The notes: generated by a model from the sequence alone, not told the origin. A stretch of 64,000 nucleotides of DNA from an uncultured Deferribacteres bacterium (GCA_964579725.1 CAZOHG010000002.1:30890-94889); one strand, 5' to 3'; counted from the first letter of the stretch, positions 8,974 through 49,323 are shown. Numbers and translations are program-made.

Positions 8974-9044
8974 TTTATTTCTCCTTCCGTTAGGTGAATA
9001 ATTGGGTAGGGAAATGCTCCCTACCCTCATCTGTTTCTTTCCGA

Positions 9045-9830: not shown

Positions 9831-9868
9831 ACTCAAGGGGGGCGATTTAACCATCGCCCCACCCTACA

Positions 9869-12800
9869 TCACCGGGATTTTTTTTGCAGACTGTGTCCTT
9901 TCCAAAGAAAATAGATCGCCGGAATCACAATGAGCGTCAATAATGTCGAAGTGATCATCCCCCCGACCATAGGAGCGGCAATTCGTTTCATGACCTGCGA
10001 TCCCGCGCCTGTGCTCCACAAAATAGGTAGAAGCCCAAAAATAATGGCAGAAACCGTCATCATTTTGGGGCGTACGCGCTTGACGGCCCCGTCGATAATG
10101 GCGGCATCCAAATCCGCTTTGTTTTTCATTGCACCGTTCATCTTCCGTTGGTTGTAAGCCTGGTCAAGATAGATAAGCATGACCACCCCTGTTTCCGCCG
10201 CCACACCGGCCAGGGCAATGAAGCCAATACTCACGGCTACACTCATGTTGTAGCCCAGGAAGTACATAAACCAAATACCGCCGACGATTGCGAACGGCAG
10301 AGAAAGCATAATAATCAAACTTTCGGCCACATTTTTAAAATTGAAATAAAGAAGAAGAAAAATCAGCACCAGCACAATAGGAATCATAATGCGCAAGCGA
10401 GCCGCCGCACGTTGCATGTATTCGAATTGGCCGCTCCAAACAATGCTGTACCCTGCCGGGAAATTGATTTTTTCCTCCACAACTTTTTGGGCTTGTTTGA
10501 CGTACGTGCCCACGTCGACACCGCGAATATCCACATAGAGCCAGGCCGTTCGCTTGGAGTTTTCGCTTTTAATCATCGGTGGCCCCTTGCGAATTCGAAT
10601 CCTGGTTATTTCTTCAATGGGGATTTTGGCGCCCGAAGGCGTTGTCACAAGAATCCTTCGAAGGGCAGGCAAATTGTCGCGGAGTTCGCGCGCGTACCGA
10701 ACATTCACCGGGTACCGTGCCAAACCTTCCACAGTGGAGGTCACATTCATGCCCCCAACGGCCGATTGAATCACATCTTGGACATCACCCACCGTCAGGC
10801 CGTAGCGGGCAATGGCGTCACGGTCAATTTCAAAATCCAGATAATTTCCACCAATGGTTTTGTCGGGGAAAACACTCACCGTTCCCGGAACATTTCTCAG
10901 CGCCTGCGCAATACGATTCCCCAGCGAAGAGAGAACGGACAAATCGCTCCCCATGATCTTAATGCCGACAGGCGTTTTGATTCCCGTAGACAACATATCG
11001 ATGCGGGTTTTAATAGGCATTGTCCAGGCGTTGGTCAACCCCGGAAAATGAATGGAGCGATCCAACTCACGCACCAATTTTTTCATGGTCATGCCCGGAC
11101 GCCACGCCTTCTTCGGTTTCAAGGTAATGGTTGTTTCAATCATGGAAAGCGGAGCGGGGTCTGTGGCGGTTTCGGCACGCCCGATTTTTCCAAAAACATG
11201 GTCAACCTCCGGAAAACTTTTAATGATCTTATCGGTCTGCTGAAGCAATTCTCGCGCCTTTGTAATGCTGATGCCCGGATCGGTGGTGGGCATGTAGAGC
11301 AAATCACCCTCATTCAGCGGCGGCATGAATTCAGACCCGATTTTCCGGAACGGGAAAATGGTTGCCAACAAAATAAGCAGAGCCAGGAAAATCACCCACC
11401 CCTTAAAACGCAGTACTACATTAATAATCGGGTGGTAGATTTTGATTAAAATAACATTGAGGGGATTTTTGTTTTCCGGCCTGATTTTTCCGCGAATCAA
11501 ATAGCCCATGAGAACGGGAACCAGTGTAATCGAAAGCAAGGCCGCTGCTGCCATTGAATAGGTTTTGGTGTAAGCCAACGGCTTAAAAAGTCGCCCCTCC
11601 TGAGCCTGCAAGGCGAACACCGGCAAAAACGAAACCACAATGATCAGCAGGGAGAAAAAAAGCGCAGGGCCGACCTCCTTGGACGCCTCGCTGACCACCT
11701 GCCAGTGCCCCTTCTTCCCGTCCGCATGTTCCAGATGCTTGTGTGCATTTTCGATCATGACAATGGCGGCGTCAATCATGGCACCAATGGCGATGGCAAT
11801 TCCTCCCAAAGACATAATATTAGCATTAAGTCCCTGAAAATACATGACTAAAAATGCCAAAAAAATACCCATAGGCAGCGTAATAATCGCCACCAGGGCG
11901 CTCTGGAAATGGAGAAGAAAAAGGATGCTAATAAGGGCGACGATTATGCTTTCTTCAATGAGTTTGCCTTTCAGGGTCTCAATGGCACGGTGAATCAAGG
12001 ACGAACGGTCGTACGCAGAGCGAATGGTAACCCCTTTGGGGAGCCCCTTTTGCAAATCTTTGAGTTTGGCTTTGACCAGGTTAATGGTTTTAAGTGCATT
12101 TTCACCGTACCGCATGACGATGATTCCGCCTACCACTTCCCCCTCACCGTTCCAATCGGCGATGCCGCGGCGCAATTCGGGTCCAATGTGGACATCGGCC
12201 ACATCCTTTATTTGAATGGGAGTCCCATTTTTATCTACCCCCAATGCAATGGAACGAATGTCTTCCGCCGAATGGATGTACCCCAAACCACGCACCATAA
12301 ATTCCGTTTCACCCATTTCTAAAAGTCGGCCCCCGATGTCGCGATTACTCCTTTTGAGCGCCCTTTTCACTTGAGCCAAAGAAATCCCGTACGCCTGCAA
12401 CTTATTGGGGTCAACCTCCACCTGATATTGCTTGACAAATCCCCCTACGCTGGCTACTTCGGCCACGCCTGGAACGGAGGTTAGTTCGTACCGAAGATAC
12501 CAATCTTGAATGGAACGCAATTCGCTTAAATCGTGGTTTTTGCTTTGCAACACGTATTCGTAAATCCAGCCGACGCCGGTTCCGTCTGGGCCCAGTGTTG
12601 GGTGCGCCTCGGCGGGCAAACGACTGGAAACCGCGCTCAAATATTCTAACACGCGACTTCTGGCCCAGTACAAATCGGTGCCGTCCTCAAAAATAATGTA
12701 CACGAAAGAGGTTCCGAAAAAAGAGTACCCGCGCACGACCTTGGCGTACGGGACAGCCATCATCGCCGTGGTGAGTGGGTACGTGACCTGGTCTTCCACA

Positions 12801-12979
12801 ACTTGAGGTGCCTGACCCTTGTATTCCGTGTAAATAATCACTTGAACGTCGCTGAGGTCGGGAATAGCGTCTACCGGCGTACACAACAGAGCCACCAGGC
12901 CCGCCAGGCCAATGCCGATCGAAAAAAGCAGAATTAAAACCCGGTTCCGAATCGAATAATCGATGATTTTTTCTAACAT
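9869..12979 (-). CDS. cusA: CusA/CzcA-family heavy-metal efflux RND permease
   Basis: A 1036-aa protein with 12-TM RND topology. The family is unmistakable in the ORF-track translation (AcrB/CzcA-like motifs throughout). Confidence 0.9.
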   Translation of the reverse strand: MLEKIIDYSIRNRVLILLFSIGIGLAGLVALLCTPVDAIPDLSDVQVIIYTEYKGQAPQVVEDQVTYPLTTAMMAVPYAKVVRGYSFFGTSFVYIIFEDGTDLYWARSRVLEYLSAVSSRLPAEAHPTLGPDGTGVGWIYEYVLQSKNHDLSELRSIQDWYLRYELTSVPGVAEVASVGGFVKQYQVEVDPNKLQAYGISLAQVKRALKRSNRDIGGRLLEMGETEFMVRGLGYIHSAEDIRSIALGVDKNGTPIQIKDVADVHIGPELRRGIADWNGEGEVVGGIIVMRYGENALKTINLVKAKLKDLQKGLPKGVTIRSAYDRSSLIHRAIETLKGKLIEESIIVALISILFLLHFQSALVAIITLPMGIFLAFLVMYFQGLNANIMSLGGIAIAIGAMIDAAIVMIENAHKHLEHADGKKGHWQVVSEASKEVGPALFFSLLIIVVSFLPVFALQAQEGRLFKPLAYTKTYSMAAAALLSITLVPVLMGYLIRGKIRPENKNPLNVILIKIYHPIINVVLRFKGWVIFLALLILLATIFPFRKIGSEFMPPLNEGDLLYMPTTDPGISITKARELLQQTDKIIKSFPEVDHVFGKIGRAETATDPAPLSMIETTITLKPKKAWRPGMTMKKLVRELDRSIHFPGLTNAWTMPIKTRIDMLSTGIKTPVGIKIMGSDLSVLSSLGNRIAQALRNVPGTVSVFPDKTIGGNYLDFEIDRDAIARYGLTVGDVQDVIQSAVGGMNVTSTVEGLARYPVNVRYARELRDNLPALRRILVTTPSGAKIPIEEITRIRIRKGPPMIKSENSKRTAWLYVDIRGVDVGTYVKQAQKVVEEKINFPAGYSIVWSGQFEYMQRAAARLRIMIPIVLVLIFLLLYFNFKNVAESLIIMLSLPFAIVGGIWFMYFLGYNMSVAVSIGFIALAGVAAETGVVMLIYLDQAYNQRKMNGAMKNKADLDAAIIDGAVKRVRPKMMTVSAIIFGLLPILWSTGAGSQVMKRIAAPMVGGMITSTLLTLIVIPAIYFLWKGHSLQKKSR

Positions 12980-13014
12980 GCGTCTCCCACTAATTGAATG
13001 GTTTTGGCCCTCGC

Positions 13015-14448
13015 CTACTTCTTCTTTTCTGCCAGCATTTTTTGAATGGCTTCCTGCAACCGGCTCTCGGAATCCAAAAGGAATTGAGCCGAGGTGACAA
13101 CCTTTTCCCCCGGCAGCAAACCCGAAGCGACTTGCACCTCATCGGCGTTCTGAATACCCAATTGAACCTGGCGCGGTTGAAATTTTCCTTTTCCGAGAGC
13201 AATGAACACAAGATCCCGTACGCCGGTGCGAATAACGGCTTCGGAAGGCACGACCAAAGCTTTTTGTTGAGGGCGCGTTTTCAGAAAGACCGTGGCAAAC
13301 ATGTTGGGCTTCAAGATTAAATCTTGGTTGTCCAGCGTCAATCGCACTGCCACGGAACGCGTCTTGCGTTCCAAATAGGGGTAAATGTACGAAACAGTTC
13401 CGCTGAAATCCCGGTTGGGAAAGGCATCAAACCGAACAATGGCTTTTTGGCCCAGGTGCACCCAGGGAATATCGTTTTCGTAAATTGTGGCATTGAGCCA
13501 AACCGTTGAAAGGTCGGCAATCTTAAAAAGTGGCGCGCCCGCCCGCACAAAATCGCCCTGAAAAGCCTTTTTCTCGATGACAAACCCGTTCGTCGGAGCG
13601 AAGAGCGTCAGGGTTTTGGTCAAAACGCCCCTGTTTTCTAAGGAGCGAATTTGCGCTGGCGAGATGTCCCACAACTTGAGGCGGTCGCGCGTGGCTTTTA
13701 GAAGGTCACGGGCACCCCTGGTAACTTCGGGGAAAGAGCTTTTCCCCAGGAGCTTTCTGTTTTTCAGCGCAAGCAAATATTCCTGCTGGGTTGCCACCAA
13801 ATCCGGAGAGTATATTTCCAGCATGGGAGCGCCCTTTCTGACCCGTTTGCCGGTGTAATCCACAAAAAGGCGTTCAATCCAGCCGGAGATTTTTGTCGTG
13901 ACCGCCACCATTTTTTGTTCGTCGTAGGCCACGGTTCCCACGGTGCGAATACTCTTGCTGATGGTCTTTTCCCGAACGGCCACCGTTCGCACGCCCATAT
14001 TTTGCACGGTAATCGGGTCAATTTTTACCGTGCCGCCCTTTTGAACATCGCTTTCGTAGACCGGGACCAGGTCCATTCCCATTTTCGACTTGCCGGGATG
14101 ATCGTAAATTTCTGTGGGGTCCATGGGCGCCTGCCAGTACAAAATTTTCCCTTTTTTCTCGGCTGACGTTGTTTTTTCTGTCCCTTCTTCCGAACCGGAA
14201 GCACCCTGTTTGACCGGGACTAAATCCATGCCGCAGATGGGGCACTGGCCGGGTTCTTTGGAAATGACCTGCGGATGCATCGGGCAGGTGTACAGGGTGG
14301 CCTTTTGGGTGTCAGACGTCCGTGCCGGTGTTTCTTTTTGACTGGAGTCGTTTTCCTCCCCCGGCAAAAAGAAAAAAAGTCCCCACCCAATGGCTATTCC
14401 AATGAAGACAAGCGCCAACCCCTGAAAATAGCGTGTGAATGTACCCAT
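13015..14448 (-). CDS. cusB: RND efflux periplasmic adaptor (CusB-like) with a duplicated N-terminal Cys/Met metal-binding module
   Basis: The N-terminus carries YTCPMHPQVISKEPGQCPICGMDLVPV and a second degenerate copy, YWQAPMDP...KMGMDLVPV. Lipoyl/beta-barrel/MP-proximal domains typical of HlyD-family adaptors follow. Confidence 0.85.
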   Translation of the reverse strand: MGTFTRYFQGLALVFIGIAIGWGLFFFLPGEENDSSQKETPARTSDTQKATLYTCPMHPQVISKEPGQCPICGMDLVPVKQGASGSEEGTEKTTSAEKKGKILYWQAPMDPTEIYDHPGKSKMGMDLVPVYESDVQKGGTVKIDPITVQNMGVRTVAVREKTISKSIRTVGTVAYDEQKMVAVTTKISGWIERLFVDYTGKRVRKGAPMLEIYSPDLVATQQEYLLALKNRKLLGKSSFPEVTRGARDLLKATRDRLKLWDISPAQIRSLENRGVLTKTLTLFAPTNGFVIEKKAFQGDFVRAGAPLFKIADLSTVWLNATIYENDIPWVHLGQKAIVRFDAFPNRDFSGTVSYIYPYLERKTRSVAVRLTLDNQDLILKPNMFATVFLKTRPQQKALVVPSEAVIRTGVRDLVFIALGKGKFQPRQVQLGIQNADEVQVASGLLPGEKVVTSAQFLLDSESRLQEAIQKMLAEKKK

Positions 14449-14454
14449 TTGTTT

Positions 14455-15756
14455 TTACCTTTCCTTTGCTCTCAAAAATAAGGGTTTGCCAACAATAATT
14501 TCCAATTCGGTAAGGGCGATTTCATACTCAGCCTGTGCTCGGTAGTAGTCGCTTTCGTAGCGAAACAGTGTTTGTTGATTGTTCAGGAGCGTCAGAAAAT
14601 CGATCTTCCCCACCTGGTAACTGGTCAGAGCTGCGTCTAACGCCTGTTTGGCCTGAGGCAAAATGCCTTCCCTCAAAAGCTTAAGCTGCTTTCGATTTTT
14701 TTCCGCACGCACCCAGGCATCCCGCAACTGAAAGCGAAGGAGGTTCCGCATGTTTTCCAGCTCTGCTTTTGCCTTTTGCAAATTTAGATCCGCTTCCTCC
14801 GTTCTTTGGGCCTGTTTTTGCCCGAAAAAAACCGGCAGATTGAACGCAACCGTAGCGGAAACGTAGTCGATGCCGGGGGCTCCCGTTTTGAGACGGTCCC
14901 GCTGGGTGTACGCCACCCCCAGAGTGACATCCGGCCAAAAATCCTTTTTCGCCAGTCGAAACAACCGCTCGGCTTTTTGCACAACGAGGCGACTTTTTTT
15001 CAAAATCGGCCGCAACGCAAACGCCAGACTTTCCAGTTCCCCGAGCGTTTGGCTCAACGAATCCAACCGAATCGTTCGGATTTTCGGAATGGGGATGTCC
15101 ACAGGACGATTGACCAAGATATTTAATTTGGCCTGAAGCGATTGCCGCTGTTGACGCAAGGCAATTTGACGATTCCGCAAGTTGGAATATTCCACCTGCG
15201 CTTTGAGAACATCCTGCTGGACACCTTTTCCCACGGCGTAACGGGTCTCGGCAATCCGGTTGAATTGCTTCAACAGGGCCATATTTTTGGCCGTCACGCG
15301 CAGCATCCGGTCTACAGCAAAAAGAGCAAAATAGGTGCTCTTTACCCTTCCCACGAGCTGATTTTCAAGTTCGATCCGGGTTTGTTCCGCAATTTGAAAC
15401 CGCGCCCGGGCCACGGATTTTTTTAGGCCCAACTTCCCGGGAAAGGGGATTTTTTGCCTGAGTGAAAGCTGTTTACCCGACATGGGTTCCTTGTTGAATA
15501 CGAAGGCATTCACCGGCAAATTCATGAAACTTACCGACAAAACTGGGTCAGGAAGACTGCCTGCTTGCGGAATTTCTTTGGCCGCTGCTTGAACGGCCAG
15601 TGCTCGGGCACGCAAATCCGGATTGTTTCGGAGCGCCAGGCGGACAAATGTTTCCACAGAGGGGGCAGTTTTCGATTGTTGAGCAAAGGAAAGTCCATTT
15701 AAACCGAGCCAAACAAGGGCTCCCAAAAGAATTATTTTTCTTCCGTTCATTCTCAT
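14455..15756 (-). CDS. cusC: TolC-family outer membrane efflux protein (CusC-like)
   Basis: Shows the TolC/OEP two-repeat architecture. The signal peptide is MRMNGRKIILLGALVWLGLNGLSFAQQ. I placed the start at 15756 instead of the 15846 extension. Confidence 0.85.
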   Translation of the reverse strand: MRMNGRKIILLGALVWLGLNGLSFAQQSKTAPSVETFVRLALRNNPDLRARALAVQAAAKEIPQAGSLPDPVLSVSFMNLPVNAFVFNKEPMSGKQLSLRQKIPFPGKLGLKKSVARARFQIAEQTRIELENQLVGRVKSTYFALFAVDRMLRVTAKNMALLKQFNRIAETRYAVGKGVQQDVLKAQVEYSNLRNRQIALRQQRQSLQAKLNILVNRPVDIPIPKIRTIRLDSLSQTLGELESLAFALRPILKKSRLVVQKAERLFRLAKKDFWPDVTLGVAYTQRDRLKTGAPGIDYVSATVAFNLPVFFGQKQAQRTEEADLNLQKAKAELENMRNLLRFQLRDAWVRAEKNRKQLKLLREGILPQAKQALDAALTSYQVGKIDFLTLLNNQQTLFRYESDYYRAQAEYEIALTELEIIVGKPLFLRAKER

Positions 15757-15934
15757 TCCTACACTTGGTTGTGTCCCGCACCCCGCGGCGGCAGCCGATT
15801 TCACCTGTTTGAGGCAAACCGTCTGCCGCGGAGGAGTGTAAGCCAAAAATTTCCGTCTTTCTTACGAAAATTGTGGAGCGTGCCAGGGCCTGGGCTGTTT
15901 CACCACGCGTTTGAACGCCGCTCTCTTTGAAAGG

Positions 15935-37804: not shown

Positions 37805-38415
37805 CTGTAGGTCTCCTCTGTATTAGGCATGCCATCAGGAAAAATAAATTGACAATAGTTTACAAAAATAAGGAGAATGAATCAAGCGAAAAATGGAAGA
37901 TCGGGAGCAAGGAGGGGCAGAAAACACAGAGCTCCAGCAGCACCCGTGTTTTTATTCCTTGCATTTTGAAAGCGTGGAAACCATCGGCCGAAAGCGCTAT
38001 TTCAATTACATTTTCCGCACCGGACTTTAGCACGTACCGTCCGCCAAACACATTGCATAATCTCTGCGGACCTTTAAAATGTAGGGCATTGTCCCGGGAA
38101 ACCAAGGCCATAATGCCTCTTGCCGTGATAATGCCTTCTTTTTCAAGTATCCTTTTTTGCCTCAAGCATGGTTTGCAAATCATTCGTCAGGCACCGGCGG
38201 ACTTCCAAATAGACCCTGTCAATCGTCAAATATTTCCGCAATTCCTTTAGGCTTCGCTTCCGTGCAGTAAACCGCTACTTTAAAATGCTGATAAGCAAAA
38301 CCCGATTTAAAGGCGATGAATAAAAAAACATCGAAAACGAAAAAAGAAATTTTCGCATAACTCCCTTTCAAAATAAATTTGAAGTAATTTAATGCTTCCG
38401 CCCGACTCTTTCGAC

Positions 38416-38955
38416 TTACGCACTTTCGGATTCCAAAATATCTTTAAAATGAATAATTTCTGCTAAAAAGCGCTTCTCAAAATGTGCTGATTCTGTTTTT
38501 AACTTCGTCCGTTCATTCAAATTGAATAAAAAACCGATGGATGGGCGATATTTCTCCAAAGAACTTCGGTAGGAACGAGTAATGGAAGCATCACGCATTT
38601 TAACTTCACTGGGAATGACCTGCCCGTTGATTTGCAGAACAAAGTCGACTTCGGATTTTCCTTTTGTGCACCAGAAGTTAGCATTAAAGCCTTGCTTTAA
38701 TAGTTCTTGTAAAACAAATGATTCATAAAGTACCCCTAAATCCGCGCGTTGTTGCAAAAAATTATTCAAAACAATATTGCGCAATCCGTTATCGAGAAAA
38801 TACAATTTAGGGTTCTTAATGATTTCCAATTTTTTGTTCGAAAGATATGTTTCAATCAATGTAATGATAAACATGTTCCGAAAAATAAACAGTAAGCGTT
38901 TAACTTCGGCAACGGATATTCCGGCCTCTTTGCTGAAGCTCATGAAGTTCATCAA
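38416..38955 (-). pseudogene. N-terminally truncated fragment of an AAA_14/DUF4143-family ATPase (DUF4143 part only)
   Basis: The translation matches the DUF4143 C-terminal region of ATP-binding proteins (KLYFLDNGLRNIVLNNF...VDFVL). The frame hits a TGA 15 codons upstream of the TTG start, so no AAA domain is present. Confidence 0.55.
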
Positions 38956-39253
38956 ACTTCCGCCACGGCCTACAAACGGCCTGCTGACAATAGTTTTTCA
39001 CAAAAATGGTTCCCCCTTGCCAGAGAATCAATGGTGGGAGAAAAAACAAATTTGTCCACGCAACACCCAAGGTTAGGCTTCAGATCAACCACAGCAATAA
39101 ACAGGATGTTCAGGAGATGTGTTTTCGCCCCCGCTTAGAGTTGAATCTGGCTGAACAGCAAAAATAAAATCATTACCATGAGTTTCAACATTTTTCTTTA
39201 CCTTCGAAGGCCGAATGAACGGCAAGCCACCCGATTTTTTCTCTCACTGCTCC

Positions 39254-41572: not shown

Positions 41573-42383
41573 CTCTTTTCCTCTGTTTTTTTCCTGTCAA
41601 CTGTTGTTTTGTTCTTTTTTGGGAATGGCGGTGGCGTTTCTACCTACCGCAACAAAAGCATTTTTCGAACCCTCTAAAAATTACGGCCTTGAAGCACAGC
41701 GAAATAACCGCCGGATGCCACTTTTTGCCCGAAATCGTCCCGTGCCTTCCATCTGAGTATGTGCGAACCGGGAGAGTGTATTCCGTCCATTTTTCCGGAT
41801 GGCCCCGTCAAATAGTGTTGCCCCCTCTCCCCGTGAGTCAATTTCCACCGAATCGTTGGGTCGGTAAAATCTTAGTACATTGATGGAATCGGAATCCCAA
41901 CAGGCCAGGCGGGGGCCAAAAAATCGAAATCTTCCGTTTGAATTGTGGCCGGCAACGGCCAGGGTTAGCCTGCAAACCGACGCTGGTTGGTCAGTACATT
42001 GAGTCGTTTTTCGTCCCAGCTTTCCAATCGCCGGCAGTAAACATATTTGTTGGATTCCGGGGCAGCATCCCAGATAGTGAAGGCAAAACCGCATCGGATG
42101 GCTCCGTTTGCCATAAGAGCGAGGGGCGAACGGCGTTCACGCTGACACAAAGTTCACCTAAAAGAATCGGCTTGTTGTGTCTCGTTGGGTGATTTTGGGC
42201 AAGGCGGATTGCCGCGACGTTTGTGCGCGGGCCGATTTCAGCCAACTCCTTTGAAGTAAAAAGAAAACCAAGACGAAAAAAATCTTCGCATTTTCTTTTG
42301 ACCGCTCGTCCGCTCCGCCGTTTTACAGGGAGTTCCCGACTTGCCTGAAAAAGCCTGGTTGGTTGCCTTTGGGCCTGGTGGGC

Positions 42384-43298
42384 TTTTCCCTAAAATTTCA
42401 CCTTAAACGACCGAATGGCGTTGTGGCCGATGGAAAATTCAAAGGTCCGGCCGGAAAACGGCACCACCCCCTGCTCGTCCTCAATCAAATTCACCTCCGT
42501 GATCCGAACCGGCGTCCGGAAAAAGTGCACCCGGACACGCGTGTCCTTGCCCTGCCACTCGTAAAACCGAAAAATAACCCCGTCCTGCGACTCCGCTTCC
42601 TTCAACGCCGCCAAAATTACCGTCCGCGGCTCCACCTGTACAAACGAAAACTCCGGCGGCAGCGCCCCCTTGTGCGACGACGCCCGCACCGCCAACAACG
42701 GGACGTTGTACTCGTACCCCCGTAGCACCGTCTCCCCGTCCCGCCAATCCCCCGCATGCCCGTACAACGCGTACCGAAACCGATTCACCCCCCTGTCCGC
42801 CGTCGGATCCGGACTCAACGGCGACCGCAACAGCGTTAACCGAAGCGTGTGCCCGTTCGGCGTGTCGTACCCCTGCTTCACATGGTTCAATAAACTCACC
42901 CCGTAATCCGGCCCCGATAAATCCGCCCAATTCTGCGCCGAATCCTCAAACCGAGCCCTGTCCCACGAATTCGACCGCCCCGTCGGCCGCTCTATCGTCG
43001 CGTACGGAATCTCGTACGTCGCCTCCTGACTCTGAACCGACAACGGAAACGCCGCCTTCGCCAACACGTGATCCTCCCACCAATCCACCGTCATCTCACA
43101 ATCCGCCCACGGCAAATCCCGGTACACCGTCACATCCTGCGTGAAAAACGACGAAGGAAAATCCTTCGTCGGATACCGCCGCGACTTCGACGGCCCTAAA
43201 AAACTCTTCTTCACCCGAATCACCGCCCGAACCGGCCCGCGCTCTTTCACAAAAACCGTGTCCGCCCGGTCAATCTCCCACCGCTTGCCCGTGTACCC
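42384..43298. repeat. 915-bp nucleotide-perfect repeat, copy A (3' third of GH38 paralog 1 plus ~6 bp past the stop)
   Basis: It aligns base-for-base with 46465-47379 at a 4081-bp offset. Identity ends abruptly at 43299/47380. Over the next ~60 bp identity is ~85 %, and then it drops to typical paralog divergence. Confidence 0.85.
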
Positions 43299-45239
43299 AA
43301 TGTTCCAGGCATCGTTGCGCTTGGGAATGTCCTGGAAAAGCTGGAGGCGATTGCCTTCCTGCCCCTTTTCCAACAATTCTTTTTGGTGTTGTTTGTCAAA
43401 AACCTCCACCCAATTTCCCGTTTTGGGGTCCACTTTAAGACGCAGGAAGCGGTTTTCCAACTGAAAACCCTTTACGGAAACCCCTTTGTCCTCGGACAGC
43501 TTGGAAGTCGGTTGAACAAAATAAACCCGGTAACCCAGAGCCGGCACATTTTTGGCCACAAATAAAAGCGTGTCGTCTTTCGGAGAAACGACCCACTGGC
43601 TGAGCAATTTTCTTCCGGCCGGATCGCGCACAACCACAGGGCCAGGATTTTGGGTGTAGGGAATTTTGACCAAACCGTTGCGCGGCCAGGACAAGGTGTT
43701 AAAGACCACAATGGGTTGTCCCTTTCCCCGAGTTCGAACCGAAGCTGCAATCGCCTCAAGCCCCGAATGAAGTTGGGCATTTCCCTTTTTCCCCACCTTT
43801 TGGTAGTCCTCCATGGCATCCTGGTAAACAGGGGTAATACTGGAGCCCGGTAAAATGTCGTGAAATTGATTAAACAAGTAGAGCCACCAGGCTCGCACTA
43901 TGGCTGCTTTTTGGTACACCTTTTTTCCCAGGAGTTCGGCCAGCGTTGAGACTTTTTCGGCGTTGGTTAAAAGAATTTCTTTTTCGCGGTTGTTGCGCTT
44001 AATTTCGCCGTGCGTTGTGTACGTGCCGCGGTGAAGCTCAAAATACAACTCATCCCGCCAAACGGGCAGATCGCTTAAATTGCTGTTGAACAGCGCCTGG
44101 AAAAAATCGTCGGCAGAAGCCAGCACAATTTTAGGAAATACCTCCGCCGTCTGAGAAAACCGAATGGTGCGCAAAATTTCACGTTCGGGGCCGCCGCCGT
44201 GGTCACCCGTTCCAAACGGAACCCCCACTACGGTACGCCCGGTATTCGCCAGGTTCATTCGGACGGCCGCCAGGAGCAAACCGAAGTAATCATCCTCGTC
44301 CGGGTCAACAAACGGGAAATACGTCAAAACGCGGGAACCGTCGGGAGCCTCCCACCAGAAAAGATGGTAGGGAAATACATTGGTGTCATTTCGATTGATT
44401 TTCAGGGTCAAAAAGCCGCGCACGCCGCTCCGTTTGAGAAACTGCGGCATATTCCACGTGTACCCAAACGAATCCGGATTCCATCCCAAATCCACATCCA
44501 CGCCAAATTTACGGCGAAAATAGTGTTTCCCGTAAAGATACTGCCGCGCCCAGGATTCTCCCCCGATTAAGTTGCAATCCGATTCAATAATTGTTCCCCC
44601 GACAATATTCCATCGCTTTTGTTTCACCCGTTCCCGAATCTCCTTGAAAACGGCGGGGTAGTCATCTTCCATCCACTTGAAAAATTGAGCGGAACTCTCG
44701 GTGAATTTGTATTCAGGGAATTCGTTCATGAGGTCTAACTGCGTTTTGAATGTGTTTCGACACACGTCAACCGTTTCGCGCCAGCGCCACAGCCAGGCGG
44801 CGTCAATGTGGGACTGTCCCACCAAATAAATGGTAAACTTCTTTGCGTAGGCCGCAACCGGTTGAAGCATTTTCCGGGCCTCGGCCAGGGATTTTTGAAA
44901 CACAGCCCAGTCGCCCCGTTGGGCGGCTCGTACATTCACGGTCTGAACCGCCTGCTCGAACAGCGGCCTCAGTGCTTCGCGTTTGGCCTCTTCCTGAAGT
45001 GCCAGGTCCACGTAAAAGGGTTGATTTCGAAAAAAACGTTTGGTGTCCGCTAAGAGCATCTTGGCCGCACGTAAGCTAATCCGAAACCGATTGAGATCGG
45101 TTTGTACCGCCTGTGGGGCGTCAATTTTCTGATTCGAAAACAGAAGCGTGGCTTGGGTGAGGGAGTCGTCCGCCTTCACCGGTACATTCAAGGCCACCGC
45201 TGCCGTGACCAAAACAACAAGAATTCGAAAAACCTTCAT
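42390..45239 (-). CDS. GH38 alpha-mannosidase, paralog 1 (secreted)
   Basis: The GH38 N-terminal catalytic motif is GQSHIDAAWLWRWRETVDVCRNTF. A signal peptide is present. The protein is 949 aa. The C-terminal ~305 aa are identical to paralog 2. Confidence 0.85.
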   Translation of the reverse strand: MKVFRILVVLVTAAVALNVPVKADDSLTQATLLFSNQKIDAPQAVQTDLNRFRISLRAAKMLLADTKRFFRNQPFYVDLALQEEAKREALRPLFEQAVQTVNVRAAQRGDWAVFQKSLAEARKMLQPVAAYAKKFTIYLVGQSHIDAAWLWRWRETVDVCRNTFKTQLDLMNEFPEYKFTESSAQFFKWMEDDYPAVFKEIRERVKQKRWNIVGGTIIESDCNLIGGESWARQYLYGKHYFRRKFGVDVDLGWNPDSFGYTWNMPQFLKRSGVRGFLTLKINRNDTNVFPYHLFWWEAPDGSRVLTYFPFVDPDEDDYFGLLLAAVRMNLANTGRTVVGVPFGTGDHGGGPEREILRTIRFSQTAEVFPKIVLASADDFFQALFNSNLSDLPVWRDELYFELHRGTYTTHGEIKRNNREKEILLTNAEKVSTLAELLGKKVYQKAAIVRAWWLYLFNQFHDILPGSSITPVYQDAMEDYQKVGKKGNAQLHSGLEAIAASVRTRGKGQPIVVFNTLSWPRNGLVKIPYTQNPGPVVVRDPAGRKLLSQWVVSPKDDTLLFVAKNVPALGYRVYFVQPTSKLSEDKGVSVKGFQLENRFLRLKVDPKTGNWVEVFDKQHQKELLEKGQEGNRLQLFQDIPKRNDAWNIGYTGKRWEIDRADTVFVKERGPVRAVIRVKKSFLGPSKSRRYPTKDFPSSFFTQDVTVYRDLPWADCEMTVDWWEDHVLAKAAFPLSVQSQEATYEIPYATIERPTGRSNSWDRARFEDSAQNWADLSGPDYGVSLLNHVKQGYDTPNGHTLRLTLLRSPLSPDPTADRGVNRFRYALYGHAGDWRDGETVLRGYEYNVPLLAVRASSHKGALPPEFSFVQVEPRTVILAALKEAESQDGVIFRFYEWQGKDTRVRVHFFRTPVRITEVNLIEDEQGVVPFSGRTFEFSIGHNAIRSFKVKF

Positions 45240-45425
45240 TTCTGCTCCCGATTTTTTTTGCCTTTCACCTTCCTCTTAAGCGCAATGAGAAGGGAAATAT
45301 CTTCACATTTTTCTCTCATTAAAAATATGCTTCCGTTCCAGCTGTCATTCCGAACGGCCAATTTTCCCCCTGTTTTTAGCAGACGGAAAAATAAAATTTT
45401 TTCGCGCGACTTTCAAGCCCCCTTT

Positions 45426-46427
45426 TTAGTAAAAGAAAACCGGACGCGAATCGGTGGAAATCCGTTTTCCATTCGGTGAATAAACATTAAGCCGGACAAA
45501 CAGCATATTGTTTTTCACGCCGTATTTTTTCACGTCCACCAATTTTCGGGGAAGAAATTCTTTGTGCAAAACCGATTTTTTCCGCATGTTCAAAGAAAGA
45601 TCAAACAACGTGGCCACCGGCTTCCCCTGTTCCGTTTCCAGGATCACCTTGACGGGGATCTTTTCGGGTCCAAGGGGCATTTCAGCATCCGAACGGAGGG
45701 TTACTTCCCACACGCGCTGTTGACCTTTCGGCACCAAGACGGTGGCCACGCGAATGCTTTGAGCGTCAATGGAAAGAACTCGTTTGGACGGCAAATTACC
45801 CGGAATCATGATCTGTAAATTTTTTAAGGGGCGATCCCTCATGTCCGTAAAACGAAGGCAAAAACGCCAATCTCCACCCCCCTGGTCAATCTTGACTAAC
45901 AGAAAATTTATCCCTTTGTGCAATGTGACCGGGACAACATCGTTGTCGCGTTGCATGCCCCGCTGGGCTGGATTGTCGTGCACAAGCTTTCCGTTCAGCC
46001 AAATGCGCACGCCGTCGTCACTGCCTACCTTCAGCAAAACACGCTGTTTTTGGGGTGATTTCAACCAACCCGCGGCGTAGGCCGCCACCCGATCTCCGGG
46101 TGAAAAAATGGATTTAAAATCAATCCGATAGGTGGCAGAAAGAAAAAGCTGCCACACGGTGTTGTTGGATTTTTGAAGCGAATCCACCGAAATCGGGCCA
46201 ATGGTTTTAAACGTGTACACCTTGGTTTCTCCCCCTTGTTTGGCCAGGAAATCCACCGTCCGGTCTTCCAGCGTTCTCAGAGGAAACGGACCGCGAACAA
46301 GCCACGTTGTAATAAACCCCTCTGAATTAGGGTGAAAAGCCAGGGTTTTGGGCTTGTTTTTGGCCCCGGCGCTTCCGACCGCTACGACCAGCAAAAAAAC
46401 AATAACAAGAACGGATCGCGTTTTCAT
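45426..46427 (-). CDS. Secreted PA14-like domain protein
   Basis: A signal peptide is present. The motif is VGSDDGVRIWLNGKLVHDN ... LLVKIDQGGGDWRFCLRF, which is a PA14-type carbohydrate-binding beta-sandwich pattern. It lies between the two GH38 genes, 43 bp downstream of paralog 2. Confidence 0.55.
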   Translation of the reverse strand: MKTRSVLVIVFLLVVAVGSAGAKNKPKTLAFHPNSEGFITTWLVRGPFPLRTLEDRTVDFLAKQGGETKVYTFKTIGPISVDSLQKSNNTVWQLFLSATYRIDFKSIFSPGDRVAAYAAGWLKSPQKQRVLLKVGSDDGVRIWLNGKLVHDNPAQRGMQRDNDVVPVTLHKGINFLLVKIDQGGGDWRFCLRFTDMRDRPLKNLQIMIPGNLPSKRVLSIDAQSIRVATVLVPKGQQRVWEVTLRSDAEMPLGPEKIPVKVILETEQGKPVATLFDLSLNMRKKSVLHKEFLPRKLVDVKKYGVKNNMLFVRLNVYSPNGKRISTDSRPVFFY

Positions 46428-46464
46428 TGAAGACTCCTGTTTTGTTTTGAAAATAAGGGTTGTT

Positions 46465-47379
46465 TTTTCCCTAAAATTTCACCTTAAACGACCGAATGGC
46501 GTTGTGGCCGATGGAAAATTCAAAGGTCCGGCCGGAAAACGGCACCACCCCCTGCTCGTCCTCAATCAAATTCACCTCCGTGATCCGAACCGGCGTCCGG
46601 AAAAAGTGCACCCGGACACGCGTGTCCTTGCCCTGCCACTCGTAAAACCGAAAAATAACCCCGTCCTGCGACTCCGCTTCCTTCAACGCCGCCAAAATTA
46701 CCGTCCGCGGCTCCACCTGTACAAACGAAAACTCCGGCGGCAGCGCCCCCTTGTGCGACGACGCCCGCACCGCCAACAACGGGACGTTGTACTCGTACCC
46801 CCGTAGCACCGTCTCCCCGTCCCGCCAATCCCCCGCATGCCCGTACAACGCGTACCGAAACCGATTCACCCCCCTGTCCGCCGTCGGATCCGGACTCAAC
46901 GGCGACCGCAACAGCGTTAACCGAAGCGTGTGCCCGTTCGGCGTGTCGTACCCCTGCTTCACATGGTTCAATAAACTCACCCCGTAATCCGGCCCCGATA
47001 AATCCGCCCAATTCTGCGCCGAATCCTCAAACCGAGCCCTGTCCCACGAATTCGACCGCCCCGTCGGCCGCTCTATCGTCGCGTACGGAATCTCGTACGT
47101 CGCCTCCTGACTCTGAACCGACAACGGAAACGCCGCCTTCGCCAACACGTGATCCTCCCACCAATCCACCGTCATCTCACAATCCGCCCACGGCAAATCC
47201 CGGTACACCGTCACATCCTGCGTGAAAAACGACGAAGGAAAATCCTTCGTCGGATACCGCCGCGACTTCGACGGCCCTAAAAAACTCTTCTTCACCCGAA
47301 TCACCGCCCGAACCGGCCCGCGCTCTTTCACAAAAACCGTGTCCGCCCGGTCAATCTCCCACCGCTTGCCCGTGTACCC
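46465..47379. repeat. 915-bp nucleotide-perfect repeat, copy B (3' third of GH38 paralog 2)
   Basis: See copy A. The identical overlapping antisense ORFs in the track (46562..47011 equals 42481..42930 and so on) confirm nucleotide identity. Confidence 0.85.
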
Positions 47380-49323
47380 GATGTTCCAGGCATCGTAATA
47401 TTTGGGAATGTCCTGAAAAAGTTGAAGCCGATTGCCTTCCTCCCCGGGCGCAAGAAGATTTCGGTTCTCCCGCTTGTCCACTAACGAGGCAATATTCCCG
47501 GTCTTCGGGTCTATTTCAATGTGGTAGAATCGATTCTCCAGACGGTAACCGGTTGCCGTGGCTGCAAAACGAACCTCTCGCGGCGTTCCCTTCCGGATGC
47601 TGTACACCCGAAAACCCAGCGGTGGCACCTGCTTCGCCACAAAAAGCAGGGTGTCGTCTTTTGGGGAGACCACCCACTGAGAGGCGATTTCCTTGCCGTT
47701 GGCATCCCGCACCACAACCGGTCCCGGATTTTTAACAAACGGAATGCGCACCAGGCCGTCCCGCGCCCACGAAAGTGTGTTGAAAACCACAACGGCTTGT
47801 CCCTTTGTACGCGTGTCAATGGAGGCGGCGAGTGCCCTGAGAGCGGCCCGCAATTGGCCGGAGGCCTTTTTCCCAATTGCTTGGTAATCTTTTAAGGCGT
47901 CTTTGTACACCGGCCGAATGCCGGACCCGGGCAAAATGTCGTGAAACTGGTTAAACAAATACGTCCACCAGGCCCCGGTGAGGGTGTTTTGACGGTACAC
48001 CTTTTTCCCCGTCCAACCCGCCAGTACCGCCATTTTTTCGGCATTGGTCAATAAAATTTCTTTTTCGCGGTTGTTCCGCTTTATTTCGCCGTGGGTTGTG
48101 TAGGTTCCGCGGTGGTACTCCAGGTAAAGTTCATTCCGCCACACAGGCAGCCCGGACAAATCACCCTGAAAGAGCTTTTTAAAATAATTCCCGGCCGGGC
48201 TAAACACAACCTTCGGGAAAACCGTGGCGGTTTGGTAGAAAAGCACGCGTTCCAACATGCGGCGTTCCGGCCCCCCGCCGTGGTCGCCAACGCCGTACAG
48301 CACCAGCACATCCCGCCGTCCGGTATTGATTTCACTCAGGCGAATGTCCCGCAAGAGGGTGTTCAAATCCAACTGCCCTACGTAGCCGCTGAACGGGAAA
48401 TAGGTCAGTACCCGGGAGCCGTCGGGGGCCTCCCACCAAAAAAGATGGTAGGGGAACACATTGGTGTCGTTCCAACTGATTTTTTGGGTGAGAAAAGCCC
48501 GTACGCCGCTCTTACGCAAAAATTGGGGCATGTTCCAGTTGTACCCAAACGAGTCGGGATTCCAGCCCAGGTGAATGTCCACCCCAAATGCCCGACGAAA
48601 ATAGCGTTTACCGTACAGATGCTGACGCACCCAGGATTCTCCTCCAATGAGGTTGCAATCCGCTTCCACAACCATTCCGCCCACCATTTCCCAACGGCCT
48701 TCTCTGACCCGCTGCTGGATTTGGTGGAACAAGTTGGGGTAGCGCGTCTGCATCCAGCGGAAAGCCATAGCCGTACTCTGGGTGTACACGTAATCGGGGA
48801 ACTGATTCATGAGGTTCAATTGCTGTTGAAAGGTATTTCGGCACACCTCCACGGTCTCGCGCCAGCGCCACAGCCAGGCCATGTCAATGTGGGCATTTCC
48901 GTCCAAATACAGAGTGTAGCGGCGGGCAAACCGGGCAATCGGCCGCAAAATTTGGCGAGCCTTTTGCAAAGAGCCCAAAAACCGGGGCCAATTTTTTCGC
49001 GCGAATGCCTGTCCGTCCACAGCGGCCAGCGCTTTTTCGTACACCGATTGAAGCCTCCGCCTTTCGTTGTCGGTAGGTCGGGCCAAATCCACCGCAAAGG
49101 GCAAATTGGAAAGGAACGATTGGGAAGGTTTTAATAGAATTCGGGCGGTTTGTACGCTAACCCGAAAGCGCTTGATCTCCTGCTGCACAGAATCCGGAGC
49201 CGTTACGGGTTTAGTGTTAAAAAGGAAGGAAAGCCGGGGTTGGGTTTGTCCGTTGGCTCCAAAAAACAGCAGCCCCGCGCCCAAGATTGTCCACGCCGAA
49301 ATTTTTCGCACCCAAGTACGCAT
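46471..49323 (-). CDS. GH38 alpha-mannosidase, paralog 2 (secreted)
   Basis: The GH38 N-terminal catalytic motif is GNAHIDMAWLWRWRETVEVCRNTF. A signal peptide is present. The protein is 950 aa. Confidence 0.85.
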   Translation of the reverse strand: MRTWVRKISAWTILGAGLLFFGANGQTQPRLSFLFNTKPVTAPDSVQQEIKRFRVSVQTARILLKPSQSFLSNLPFAVDLARPTDNERRRLQSVYEKALAAVDGQAFARKNWPRFLGSLQKARQILRPIARFARRYTLYLDGNAHIDMAWLWRWRETVEVCRNTFQQQLNLMNQFPDYVYTQSTAMAFRWMQTRYPNLFHQIQQRVREGRWEMVGGMVVEADCNLIGGESWVRQHLYGKRYFRRAFGVDIHLGWNPDSFGYNWNMPQFLRKSGVRAFLTQKISWNDTNVFPYHLFWWEAPDGSRVLTYFPFSGYVGQLDLNTLLRDIRLSEINTGRRDVLVLYGVGDHGGGPERRMLERVLFYQTATVFPKVVFSPAGNYFKKLFQGDLSGLPVWRNELYLEYHRGTYTTHGEIKRNNREKEILLTNAEKMAVLAGWTGKKVYRQNTLTGAWWTYLFNQFHDILPGSGIRPVYKDALKDYQAIGKKASGQLRAALRALAASIDTRTKGQAVVVFNTLSWARDGLVRIPFVKNPGPVVVRDANGKEIASQWVVSPKDDTLLFVAKQVPPLGFRVYSIRKGTPREVRFAATATGYRLENRFYHIEIDPKTGNIASLVDKRENRNLLAPGEEGNRLQLFQDIPKYYDAWNIGYTGKRWEIDRADTVFVKERGPVRAVIRVKKSFLGPSKSRRYPTKDFPSSFFTQDVTVYRDLPWADCEMTVDWWEDHVLAKAAFPLSVQSQEATYEIPYATIERPTGRSNSWDRARFEDSAQNWADLSGPDYGVSLLNHVKQGYDTPNGHTLRLTLLRSPLSPDPTADRGVNRFRYALYGHAGDWRDGETVLRGYEYNVPLLAVRASSHKGALPPEFSFVQVEPRTVILAALKEAESQDGVIFRFYEWQGKDTRVRVHFFRTPVRITEVNLIEDEQGVVPFSGRTFEFSIGHNAIRSFKVKF

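Follow-up and report, generated by a model that had tools for sequence, protein, structure and literature searches.

A domain-limited, G-biased 3′ module in two tandem GH38 alpha-mannosidase-like genes of an uncultured Deferribacteres bacterium: probable long-lived concerted evolution with recent re-homogenisation

This study analyzed a 64,000-nt stretch of DNA (hereafter the window) from an uncultured Deferribacteres bacterium (GCA_964579725.1 CAZOHG010000002.1:30890-94889). Two GH38 genes on the minus strand, gene A (42390..45239, 949 aa) and gene B (46471..49323, 950 aa), flank a minus-strand gene encoding a 333-aa PA14-like protein (45426..46427), which serves as a syntenic marker of the clade. 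An earlier note on this DNA had described this arrangement, and Pfam searches confirmed the domains: A and B each contain Glyco_hydro_38N, Alpha-mann_mid, Glyco_hydro_38C, and Glyco_hydro38C2 (E 1e-76 to 1e-12), with A/B scores above the curated thresholds (PF01074, 256/261 bits; PF09261, 87/84.5; PF07748, 183/187; PF17677, 45 in both). The PA14 match was weak, at 22.9 bits under a curated cutoff of 24. The motifs HIDxAWLW and GWNPDSFGY, which we take to be the putative metal-binding His/Asp and nucleophile Asp, are visible in both sequences, and both proteins are predicted by homology to be alpha-mannosidases. Their best solved relatives in the PDB are Ams1-type GH38 enzymes (E 1e-115 to 1e-91), nearly all entries of which have four chains. 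The surroundings of A and B constitute a glycan-degradation cluster (GH3, GH78, and HAD). No mobile-element gene was found in the window, and no RT domain was found in any window ORF of at least 150-200 aa. A diversity-generating retroelement was rejected on account of this lack of an RT domain and because the repeats described subsequently are identical rather than differing at adenines.

The 5′ parts of the two genes are only moderately similar, as had been claimed earlier. The unique part of gene A (43299..45239, minus strand, codons 1-647) comprises a signal-peptide-like N-terminus, the GH38 N-domain, the middle domain, and the start of the C-domain; that of gene B (47380..49323, minus strand, codons 1-648) likewise carries Pfam domains, and the two share 59% amino acid identity. 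For comparison, the loci L162, L163, and L164/L165 were recovered through PA14-like orthologs at 98%, 73%, and 71% identity, respectively, and L162 represents a conspecific strain with about 98.6% nucleotide identity overall. The unique part of gene A is 78% identical to its ortholog in L164, whereas the L164 ortholog is only 60-70% identical to B. The unique part of gene B has orthologs in L162 (about 99% identical) and in L001 (80% at the amino acid level, codons 455-647).

The 3′ parts of the genes are identical. The longest exact match at an offset of 4081 joins 42384..43298 to 46465..47379, a direct repeat of 915 bp with 0 mismatches that comprises, on the minus strand, the last 302 codons of each gene, the stop codon, and 6 nt; the identical blocks and sharp boundary reported earlier were thus reproduced. 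In gene A, this shared module spans the distal GH38 C-domain and the C-terminal beta-sandwich. The first A/B mismatch occurs at 43299/47380, past which the upstream A/B identity per 100 nt is 69%, 47%, and 64%. Directly upstream of this lone mismatch lies a 16-nt A/B-identical run, ACGATGCCTGGAACAT (43300..43315, minus strand; counterpart in gene B, 47381-47396, minus strand), which covers codons 642-647, encodes part of the conserved DAWNIGYTG motif, and ranks among the three longest stretches of nucleotides conserved between the two genes. In gene A of the window, as in the A-ortholog of L164, the motif begins at codon 643, and local A/B identity is 80-87% over codons 628-647 compared with 20-60% farther upstream. 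Direct reading of the sequence at the 3′ junction (42384..42392, minus strand) revealed the stop codon TAG followed by GGAAAA, at which A/B identity stops; the flanks beyond are unrelated, with an A/B identity of about 20-40% downstream of 42384. No GH38 remnant or alternative A tail was found downstream of gene A. Both junctions are in frame, and both genes encode full-length GH38 proteins with all four domains.

The module is also set apart by its codon usage, and the near-exclusive use of G-ending codons, the use of TTT for Phe, and the near absence of A-ending codons noted earlier were all borne out. Codons able to end in G did so in 84% of cases in the block compared with 38-41% upstream. 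The block has third-position frequencies of G 0.63, A 0.04, C 0.145, and T 0.185, compared with G 0.31-0.33, A 0.15-0.17, and C 0.28-0.32 in the unique parts. The preference extends across the code (GCG.90, CCG.95, ACG.95, CGG.86, TCG.71, GGG.80, GAG.89, AAG.85, CAG 1.0, and TTT.89). Over 705 other 303-codon windows of the genes in this window, G3 has a mean of 0.276, an sd of 0.031, and a maximum of 0.373; the block lies about 11 sd out, far beyond the host range.

The shift does not extend to C. C-ending shares are low (GCC.05, CCC 0, and ACC.05), Y-ending two-fold codons (Asp, His, Asn, Tyr, and Ile) remain near background with no push to C, no rise in C-ending codons is seen for Asp, Phe, or Ile, and Leu is encoded by TTG, not CTG. 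A comparison with L001 shows T in the window opposite C in L001 at 11 sites and the reverse at 1. Because the Y-ending codons remain near background, the bias is G-specific and strand-specific, not a GC3 shift. The unshifted Y-ending codons and the strand specificity are points absent from the earlier note. The change-point in the G-ending share falls at codon 648 in gene A (support 640-655; 0.38 to 0.84) and at codon 649 in gene B (support 645-672), and both coincide with the identity boundary. Within the module, the profile shows an interior plateau of 0.84-0.93 and is weaker at the edges (0.76 and 0.50-0.58). The bias is almost confined to synonymous sites, and the amino acid composition of the block is within the family range.

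At the nucleotide level, the coding strand of the block is 39.5% G and 62% G+T, and the two blocks contain the only 300-nt windows with G of at least 37% on either strand of the whole 64 kb. G-cluster triplets occur at 8.7 per kb in the blocks compared with 0.42 per kb elsewhere. By the thresholds of R-loop predictors, the non-template strand of the blocks has a switch-region-like combination of G density and G-clusters. Genes in the window have G3 > C3 on the minus strand and the reverse on the plus strand, and the coding (non-template) strand enriched in G is also the leading-strand-like strand. The block showed no excess RNA structure (z = -1.09 compared with +0.71 for the control) and no Rfam match, and its one strong hairpin was not found to be conserved. 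Neither ordinary GC-biased conversion nor translational selection accounts for the G-bias, and an overlapping gene or RNA structure does not explain it either.

We then consider the relatives of the module. A G-rich tail with the same DAWNIGYTG start also occurs in gene B of L162 and in two orthologs, that of B in L001 and that of A in L164; the carriers represent three species-level lineages (PA14 protein identity, 70-76%), and the independent assemblies from four other data sets contain the module in B or A. The L162-B block differs from the window blocks at 4 positions in 915 bp (99.6% identical), all synonymous. The L001-B block is 82.5% identical to that of the window at the amino acid level and about 78% at the nucleotide level, and at shared four-fold sites it has 66% G compared with 85% in the window, both having about 40% upstream. 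In L164-A, the G-ending share is 0.37 before and 0.70 after a switch at codon 636 (support 622-648), and the observed LLR was reached in 0 of 300 permutations. At 31 four-fold sites compared three ways, at least 24 have G in two or more lineages, and at 6 sites L001-B alone has C, both other lineages having G. Across 161 homologous loci, G3 of the C-part minus that of the N-part has a mean of 0.000 and an sd of 0.034, compared with 0.31 in the window; the largest shift, 0.15, occurs in the only close relative. No homolog among the 161 has G3 > 0.49 in the module segment, and no shift was found in the outgroups L082 and L166. On these sequence comparisons, the G-bias is an old, lineage-wide property of a module common to both paralogs, present in every sampled species of the two-paralog clade, and not, as the earlier note had implied, a property of a recent event.

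The nearest relatives of the block are L001 and then L082, and those of the N-terminal parts are L082 and, where it overlaps, L001; separate best-match searches thus place the block in the same lineage as the unique parts, not in a different one. No plasmid or phage match to the block was found. A recently inserted xenologous segment, one of the explanations offered earlier, was rejected in view of this shared best-hit lineage, the presence of the tail in L162, L001, and L164, and the lack of mobile context. As judged by its relatives, the block is not foreign.

Separate trees of the gene parts revealed that the sequences sort by paralog upstream of DAWNIGYTG and that this sorting is lost downstream. 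In the upstream tree (codons 458-647), the paralog grouping has a bootstrap of 1.0, and the paralog distance is 0.25 compared with an ortholog distance of 0.147. In the block, where the A-ortholog comparison covers 81 codons of a highly conserved segment (codons 648-728), the L164-A/L001-B distance of 0.080 equals the window-B/L001-B ortholog distance of 0.080, nucleotide identity is 0.85 across paralogs (L164-A/L001-B) compared with 0.82 between orthologs (window-B/L001-B), and a Poisson test of whether the differences are fewer than expected between paralogs gave a P of only about 0.03. The A and B tracts of the window are 100% identical, whereas the window and L001-B share 82.5% of amino acids; paralogs within one genome are therefore closer than orthologs.

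Homogenisation is evident at two time depths. The presence in L164-A of a B-like G-rich tail starting from the same codon indicates an ancestral event, and 0 A/B differences compared with 4 to L162-B indicate recent homogenisation in this strain; about 4 differences would be expected if the copies had been independent since the strain split (Poisson P of about 0.02). The very recent conversion proposed earlier is therefore supported as the source of the perfect identity (0 of 915), but the foreign third donor invoked with it to explain the composition is not. Third-position divergence between the window and L162 is not significantly lower in the block (1.3%) than in the flanks (2.45%; p = 0.29), and so provides no direct evidence of a force acting now. 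Within-genome identity of A and B comes from one assembly, and the other species each contribute the tail of a single paralog (B in L001; 81 codons of A in L164); conversion may be ongoing in those species, and continuity between the two depths is what we infer. One ancestral homogenisation followed by a second, recent one would fit the data as well as continuous conversion does.

On balance, we consider it somewhat probable that the block is a domain-limited concerted-evolution module, long-lived and very recently re-homogenised in this strain. Under this explanation, A and B would be ancient tandem GH38 paralogs whose last 302 codons have been homogenised through recurrent intrachromosomal gene conversion. 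The 5′ limit of the tract would be the conserved DAWNIGYTG-coding stretch, farther upstream of which the paralogs would be too diverged for recombination, and the 3′ limit would be the stop codon, where the homology of the genes ends. The first homogenisation would date back to the common ancestor of three or more species-level lineages, or earlier, and the re-homogenisation after the split from the 98.6%-identical sister strain, most likely in the direction from B to A.

The repeat, the bias, their common boundary, the disappearance of the paralog signal within the module, and the age of the bias are shown by the data; the origin of the bias is inferred. With moderate confidence, and as a best guess that is unproven, we propose that it was made or maintained by a strand-specific process linked to the recombination or transcription of the module. 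One candidate process is repair of, or damage to, a repeatedly exposed single-stranded coding strand, which R-loop formation on the G-dense non-template strand may reinforce; the resulting variants would then spread to both copies through conversion. We know of no bacterial repair or recombination pathway documented as driving one-strand N-to-G changes. Under repair of G/T mismatches or MutY-type repair, GC would be expected to rise symmetrically on both strands, unlike the pattern in the block. The idea that bacteria have a strand-specific drive tied to conversion or to single-stranded DNA is tentative, and we regard it as rather unlikely. Under such a drive, the exposed coding strand of co-oriented converting repeats would lose A and C and gain G at every silent site, conversion would carry each change to both copies, and the rising G-density, through R-loops or RecA-friendly GT-richness, would promote more recombination in a self-reinforcing loop, leaving a protein module recoded to about 90% G-ending codons with the protein unchanged. 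If true, this would constitute a new type of biased conversion that differs between strands and involves transversions as well, and compositional islands resembling horizontal transfer would have a new source.

Selection on protein or translation is a less likely cause of the bias. We also consider improbable a rival explanation in which the nucleic acid itself, or its expression, is under selection. A G-rich, C- and A-poor sense strand would then be kept as useful: the mRNA tail may be poor for Rho loading and the antisense transcript excellent, translation speed may be tuned for the beta-rich C-terminal domains, or the DNA may be a preferred recombination substrate, with the identity of the copies kept by a common need for a C-terminal oligomerisation or partner interface. 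The restriction of the bias to synonymous choices, its retention in three species-level lineages and both paralogs, and the G+T-rich coding strand are consistent with such selection, and the four chains of the Ams1-type relatives render a common interface plausible. However, the RNA results given above speak against it, translational selection would cover the whole gene rather than begin at codon 648, neither the outgroups nor any other GH38 shows such a need, and the weaker bias at the module edges is not predicted.

About as improbable as selection is an ancient replacement, in which the 3′ third of one paralog was replaced before speciation by a segment of a donor using almost only G-ending codons, was copied once into the other paralog, and has since been decaying toward the codon usage of the host, followed by the recent B-to-A conversion. 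The donor would be a foreign GH38 or a lost third paralog, and the DAWNIGYTG stretch, one of the longest conserved runs, would be a natural crossover point, hence the coinciding junctions. A composition far beyond the host range fits this account, as do G-ending shares of 0.84 in the window and 0.66-0.70 in the relatives, which resemble different stages of decay, and the 6 sites with C in L001-B only. Rough saturation arithmetic just allows the decay, provided that the ancestral module had a G-ending share of about 95% or more. We know of no organism with about 95% G-ending but not C-ending codons, however, and the 0 of 161 homologs above 0.49 leave no candidate donor. The nearest relatives of the module (L001, then L082) belong to the lineage found for the other gene parts, and neither mobile-element context nor a plasmid or phage match accompanies it. 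The replacement would also require far less decay in the window lineage than in two others over equal time, and it merely shifts the bias, unexplained, into an unseen donor.

An assembly or polishing artefact, in which the block is really present once, or consensus polishing or repeat collapse erased the differences between two similar copies, is very improbable as the source of the repeat. Perfect 915-bp repeats are difficult for short-read assemblers, and the L162 short-read contig passes unbroken through the B block, suggesting that the A copy of L162 is not a perfect duplicate. By contrast, the junctions are in frame and the proteins full-length with four domains, a chimera would need a second breakpoint 6 nt past the stop codon where there is no homology, no alternative A tail lies downstream, and the A-ortholog of another species independently has a B-like G-rich tail from the same codon; nor can assembly create the composition anomaly. 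The artefact suspected earlier could thus apply to the last fraction of a percent of identity, which polishing could have slightly inflated, but not to the whole phenomenon, which recurs in the independent assemblies. Constraint on GH38 third positions by an overlapping antisense or alternative-frame gene is effectively refuted: the scarcity of A-ending codons opens the antisense in-register frame, and the block has ORFs of 120 aa on the plus strand and 149 aa in an alternative minus-strand frame, but none exceeds half of the 303 codons, whereas the bias is uniform; they encode low-complexity strings of Arg, Pro, and Gly (spurious, as was noted before), and the L001 ORFs are equally fragmented.

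Several known systems resemble parts of this locus. Like xenologous mosaic genes, A and B have a sharp compositional boundary within the gene; unlike them, they show no discordant phylogeny, donor, or mobile context, and orthologs in other species have the same feature. The proteins share their four Pfam domains with Ams1 / MAN2C1-type GH38 enzymes (PDB 6lz1, 5jm0, and 7ufr) but differ from these in their signal-peptide-like N-termini and their location in a glycan-degradation cluster. GC-biased gene conversion has been described in bacteria (PMC4450053 / 10.1101/011023) and in frequently converting X-chromosome palindromes (PMC8981503). As in that process, the shift is confined to the converting tract, with change-points at its boundary, and affects silent sites regardless of protein function; however, GC-biased conversion favours G:C pairs in either orientation, whereas the GH38 block gains G on the coding strand only. 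This process was rejected because the block lacks a symmetric W-to-S shift: the share of C at third positions declines (from about 0.30 to 0.145), with no drive toward C in Y-ending two-fold codons. Immunoglobulin class-switch regions have G-dense non-template strands, form R-loops, and stimulate recombination (PMC4245955). The module resembles them in its length of about 0.9 kb, its G content of about 40%, its dense non-template G-clusters, and its two recombining copies; it is unlike them in being bacterial and protein-coding, with no tandem degenerate repeats and no known deaminase, and the resemblance is compositional only.

The mtrA-1/mtrA-2 genes of methanogens, in which long-lasting, domain-limited gene conversion occurs between operonic paralogs (PMC4632066), also resemble the GH38 pair, and mammalian gene pairs provide a related case of long-term concerted evolution (PMC2720389). 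The GH38 segment differs from mtrA in adding an extreme strand-specific synonymous bias (84% G-ending), and a text search of the mtrA paper (PMC4632066) found no mention of GC content or GC3; its boundary also lies inside a domain, at a conserved motif, rather than at a domain fusion point. In both systems, ancient tandem or operonic prokaryotic duplicates have had a domain-sized segment homogenised across species while the rest diverged, and the paralogs look like one gene inside the tract and sort by paralog outside it.

The tandem GH38 alpha-mannosidase genes, A (42390..45239, minus strand; 949 aa) and B (46471..49323, minus strand; 950 aa), each encode four GH38 Pfam domains, and the nearest solved structures to their products were Ams1-type GH38 mannosidases. 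The PA14-like gene between them (45426..46427, minus strand) encodes a 333-aa protein with a sub-threshold PA14 match; the neighbors of the locus are GH3, HAD, and GH78 genes, and no tRNA genes were found in the 64-kb window. A fixed-offset scan revealed, at an offset of 4081 nt, one 915-nt stretch of unbroken identity (42384-43298 = 46465-47379), giving two 915-bp copies 4 kb apart that comprise the last 302 codons, the stop codon, and 6 nt of both genes (hereafter the block, or tail). The first A/B mismatch lies at 43299/47380, beyond which the identity per 100 nt was 0.69, 0.47, and 0.64; over the remaining gene sequence it ranged from 0.36 to 0.79. At the 3' edge, the match takes in the stop codon and ends 6 nt past it (TAG GGAAAA); the sequences beyond are unrelated between the copies. 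The stretch of approximately 810 bp between the GH3 gene and A (41573-42389) contains no open reading frame (ORF) of at least 150 aa. Outside the block, the longest exact A/B runs were 23 nt (44775-44798) and 21 nt (43974-43994), corresponding to codons 148-155 and 416-422 of A and their equivalents in B, within diverged N-terminal parts; they could be constrained motifs (HIDxAWLWRWRE and NNREKEI) or traces of micro-conversion.

We analyzed the codon and base composition of the block. Its third positions were 0.63 G, 0.145 C, 0.185 T, and 0.04 A, compared with 0.31-0.33 G, 0.28-0.32 C, and 0.15-0.17 A in the unique parts of A and B; the third-position G frequency (G3) of the other window genes was 0.276 ± 0.031 and did not exceed 0.373 in 705 windows of block length. 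The G-ending codons accounted for most of the usage in their boxes (GCG.90, CCG.95, ACG.95, CGG.86, TCG.71, GGG.80, GAG.89, AAG.85, and CAG 1.0). The Y-ending two-fold boxes were near background and leucine usage shifted from CTN to TTG or TTA, indicating that C, like A, is depleted; rather than a GC3 shift, the coding strand shows the pattern G >> T > C > A. In a likelihood change-point analysis, A switched to G-ending codons at codon 648 (support 640-655) and B at codon 649 (645-672), and both change-points coincide exactly with the identity boundary. Within the block, the bias forms an interior plateau of 0.84-0.93 with weaker edges (0.76 and 0.50-0.58). When both strands of the 64-kb window were scanned, the only 300-nt stretches with at least 37% G were the two blocks, where the density of G-clusters was approximately 20-fold that of the remaining window. 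The amino acid composition of the block did not leave the range of the family, and first positions had lost A only mildly, indicating that the effect resides at silent sites. Minus-strand genes of the window have G3 above C3 and plus-strand genes the reverse; the block bias has the same sign as this weak genome-wide skew and is approximately 10 times larger.

Among 161 homologous loci from genome and metagenome collections, the G3 of the C-terminal third minus that of the rest averaged 0.000 (sd 0.034) and reached at most 0.15, in a single close relative, versus 0.31 in the window. The bias is thus not a general property of the GH38 C-terminal domain, and it is not a general habit of tandem GH38 pairs, because the two other loci with such pairs (L147 and L140) have no homogenized segment. 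The block protein had a single close database relative, P0001 on locus L001 (82.5% identity); all other matches were at most about 52% identical, except that of the outgroup locus L082 (67%). The GH38 gene of L001 is a B-ortholog with the PA14-like gene after it; in the part immediately before the junction, it shares 80% identity with B and 65% with A. A protein search with the unique part of A returned a best match of 41% and missed P0001, which is 65% identical; the protein search was therefore non-exhaustive, and further relatives may exist.

Using the PA14-like protein as the query, we recovered further loci of the clade. L162 represents a conspecific strain with approximately 98.6% nucleotide identity over 7.3 kb and contains HAD, an ORF, B, PA14, and the start of A. 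L163 and L164 (the latter equal to L165) represent two further species, whose PA14-like proteins are 85% identical to each other and 71-76% identical to those of the window and L001. L164 provides 728 codons of a true A-ortholog, whose identity upstream of the junction is 78% with A and 60-70% with B. The accessions behind L001, L162, L163, and L164 are JGI 3300044607, ERZ27262647, ERZ940665, and GCA_054038015.1, respectively. The B gene of L162 carries a 66-nt in-frame insertion in the catalytic N-domain (approximately 3442-3507; window approximately 48587) that partly duplicates the stretch coding for GVDIHLGWNPD and reflects either true indel variation or a faulty assembly. Upstream of the PA14-like gene, the 250-320 nt of L164 (1-287), L163 (1-252), and L165 (1-318) showed no visible GH38 3' end; B stops 43 nt upstream of this gene in the window, and the corresponding spacer in L001 is 461 nt. 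The spacing between B and the PA14-like gene, and even the presence of B there, thus varies among species.

The G bias of the tail was also observed in these relatives. At 120 four-fold sites shared in the tail, G accounted for 85% in the window and 66% in L001-B, whereas upstream of the tail it accounted for approximately 40% in both. In L164-A, the frequency of G-ending codons rose from 0.37 to 0.70 at codon 636 (support 622-648; 0 of 300 permutations), and the DAWNIGYT motif begins at codon 643 both in this gene and in window A; the G-ending profile of L162-B matched that of the window. No G3 shift was found in the outgroups L082 (a single GH38 gene, 57-67% identical) and L166 (GH38 with a distant PA14-like gene). 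These comparisons indicate that the G-rich tail is old and predates the recent homogenization.

We further compared the paralog signal on the two sides of the junction. Over codons 458-647, the A-type and B-type sequences separated with a bootstrap value of 1.0, and the distance at first and second positions was 0.25 for the paralog pair versus 0.147 for the ortholog pair. Over codons 648-728, the distance between L164-A and L001-B (0.080) equaled that between window B and L001-B (0.080), and the nucleotide identities were 0.85 and 0.82, respectively. The results, which for the A-ortholog derive from 81 codons of a conserved segment, indicate that the paralog signal is lost inside the tail.

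Both tails are seen in one genome only, that of the window. The L162-B tail differs from the window block by four synonymous changes (codons 672, 696, 778, and 802), compared with none between window A and B; separate evolution of A and B since the strain split would yield approximately 4 differences (Poisson P approximately 0.02 for the 0 seen). These counts indicate that the last A/B homogenization is very recent and bear out the recent gene conversion proposed in the earlier note. Because the B block is continuous with sister-strain B and the L162 short-read contig traverses it unbroken, the simplest reading is a B-to-A conversion, or a re-homogenization of near-identical tails, in the window strain. 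An assembly artefact, which the earlier note also raised, is possible for the exactness of the identity only: it would need a pair of chimeric joins, one at a site lacking homology, and no displaced A tail lies downstream of A, where the 810-bp gap showed no GH38 similarity in any frame; the codon bias, present in four independent assemblies, is not attributable to such an artefact. A foreign donor or recent xenologous insertion behind the composition, and with it a best-match lineage particular to the block, was not borne out, because the composition is older than the event and is common to both paralogs in other species, the block and the rest of the genes have the same nearest neighbors, and neither a mobile-element gene in the window nor a plasmid or phage match to the block was found.

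The edges of the tail are explicable by homology. At the 5' edge, A and B share a run of 16 nt ahead of the single mismatch; A/B identity over codons 628-647 is 80-87%, compared with 20-60% further upstream, and this stretch encodes a motif conserved family-wide. The 3' edge is where homology ends. Homologous recombination depends on homology, and the part upstream of the tail is approximately 40% diverged between A and B at the nucleotide level; recombination would thus be confined to the identical tail, and the boundary would be self-perpetuating.

The main rival account of the G bias is that the tail is the decaying relic of an ancestral, almost wholly G-ending patch. Four-fold identity between the window and L001 in the flank is 0.46, against a chance expectation of 0.29, so that only approximately one quarter of sites are unchanged and the ancestor must have been at least about 95% G; with such an ancestor the arithmetic holds and the relic is numerically just possible, but it has no donor and leaves the origin of the bias unexplained. 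The remaining candidates were rejected: translational selection would not begin at codon 648 in two genes and spare the first 647 codons; under symmetric GC-biased conversion, C-ending codons would rise, whereas they fall; against an overlapping or antisense gene, the block has only fragmented, low-complexity ORFs (maximum 149 aa) without conservation in L001; and a structured RNA is opposed by a minimum free energy z-score of -1.09 (+0.71 in the neighboring control) and the lack of Rfam matches at E <= 1. The coding block does contain a terminator-like hairpin (43149-43171 and 47230-47252, minus strand) made up of a perfect 10-bp stem, a 3-nt loop, and a trailing TTTTT, which uses the sole non-CCG proline codon of the block; because L162 has a disrupted version (CCA) and L001 and L164 lack it, it was rejected as a conserved cause and is probably a by-product of codon usage.

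The remaining reading, to which the evidence points, is a strand-specific process tied to the block. In both paralogs, the extent of the bias is that of the converting tract, and its sign is that of the genome-wide skew; its interior plateau and weaker edges would be expected if central sites took part in more recombination intermediates; and the non-template strand, with approximately 40% G and dense G-clusters, has an R-loop-associated composition. Third-position divergence between strains, whose reduction in the block would mark an ongoing force, was not significantly lower there (p = 0.29). In such a process, the coding strand would be repeatedly exposed as single-stranded DNA through resection, gap repair, or R-loop formation, and adenine and cytosine on it would be lost to deamination. 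Abasic-site bypass would then yield C-to-G changes where these are synonymous and C-to-T changes where only C-to-T is synonymous, G would act as a stable sink, and each change would be copied to the sister repeat by conversion. We infer every step of this sketch, which would fit the order G >> T > C > A; we know of no bacterial pathway that inserts C opposite such lesions.

Other features of the window were also recorded. Within a low-GC island (38000-39200; 0.365-0.41 versus approximately 0.50-0.55 around it) lies an ORF of 179 aa (38416..38955, minus strand) whose DUF4143 match is confined to the C-terminal portion of that domain; it is possibly the degraded remainder of a foreign or ATPase gene. 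The window also encodes a multihaem cytochrome bearing a T9SS sorting domain at its C-terminus, beside a P-type ATPase and a cluster for heavy-metal efflux of the RND/HlyD/OEP kind (4107-6242 and 6553-15846). Homologs were labeled KSB1, Aminicenantes, Ignavibacteria, and Bacteroidota, and the sample sources were vent or sediment; taken together with the cytochrome and efflux genes, these labels and sources suggest that the bacterium belongs to the FCB group and lives in sediment or at a vent.

Sharp-bordered compositional islands are routinely taken for horizontal transfer. The present comparisons argue that this island arose and persists within a native gene pair evolving in concert, and the locus warns annotators and users of horizontal transfer detectors of false positives; breaks or excessive polishing are also likely in assemblies of it. 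If the bias is a by-product of recurrent conversion, it would represent a strand-asymmetric biased conversion outside current models of GC-biased gene conversion, which are symmetric and W-to-S, and would affect how codon usage, GC skew, and the composition of silent sites are read in bacterial gene duplicates. The repeat pair offers a compact natural system in which the link among transcription, single-stranded DNA exposure, recombination, and the mutation spectrum could be tested.

The architecture of the GH38 pair matches that of mtrA-1/mtrA-2, in which domain-limited, long-lasting conversion occurs between operonic paralogs (PMC4632066), and that of long-term concerted evolution in general (PMC2720389). 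The composition shift is similar in its localization to GC-biased gene conversion, as described by the standard model (PMC4450053, PMC8981503), but fails its defining symmetry. In its non-template composition, the block is similar to switch regions, whose G-rich, G-clustered non-template strand is associated with R-loops and recombination (PMC4245955).
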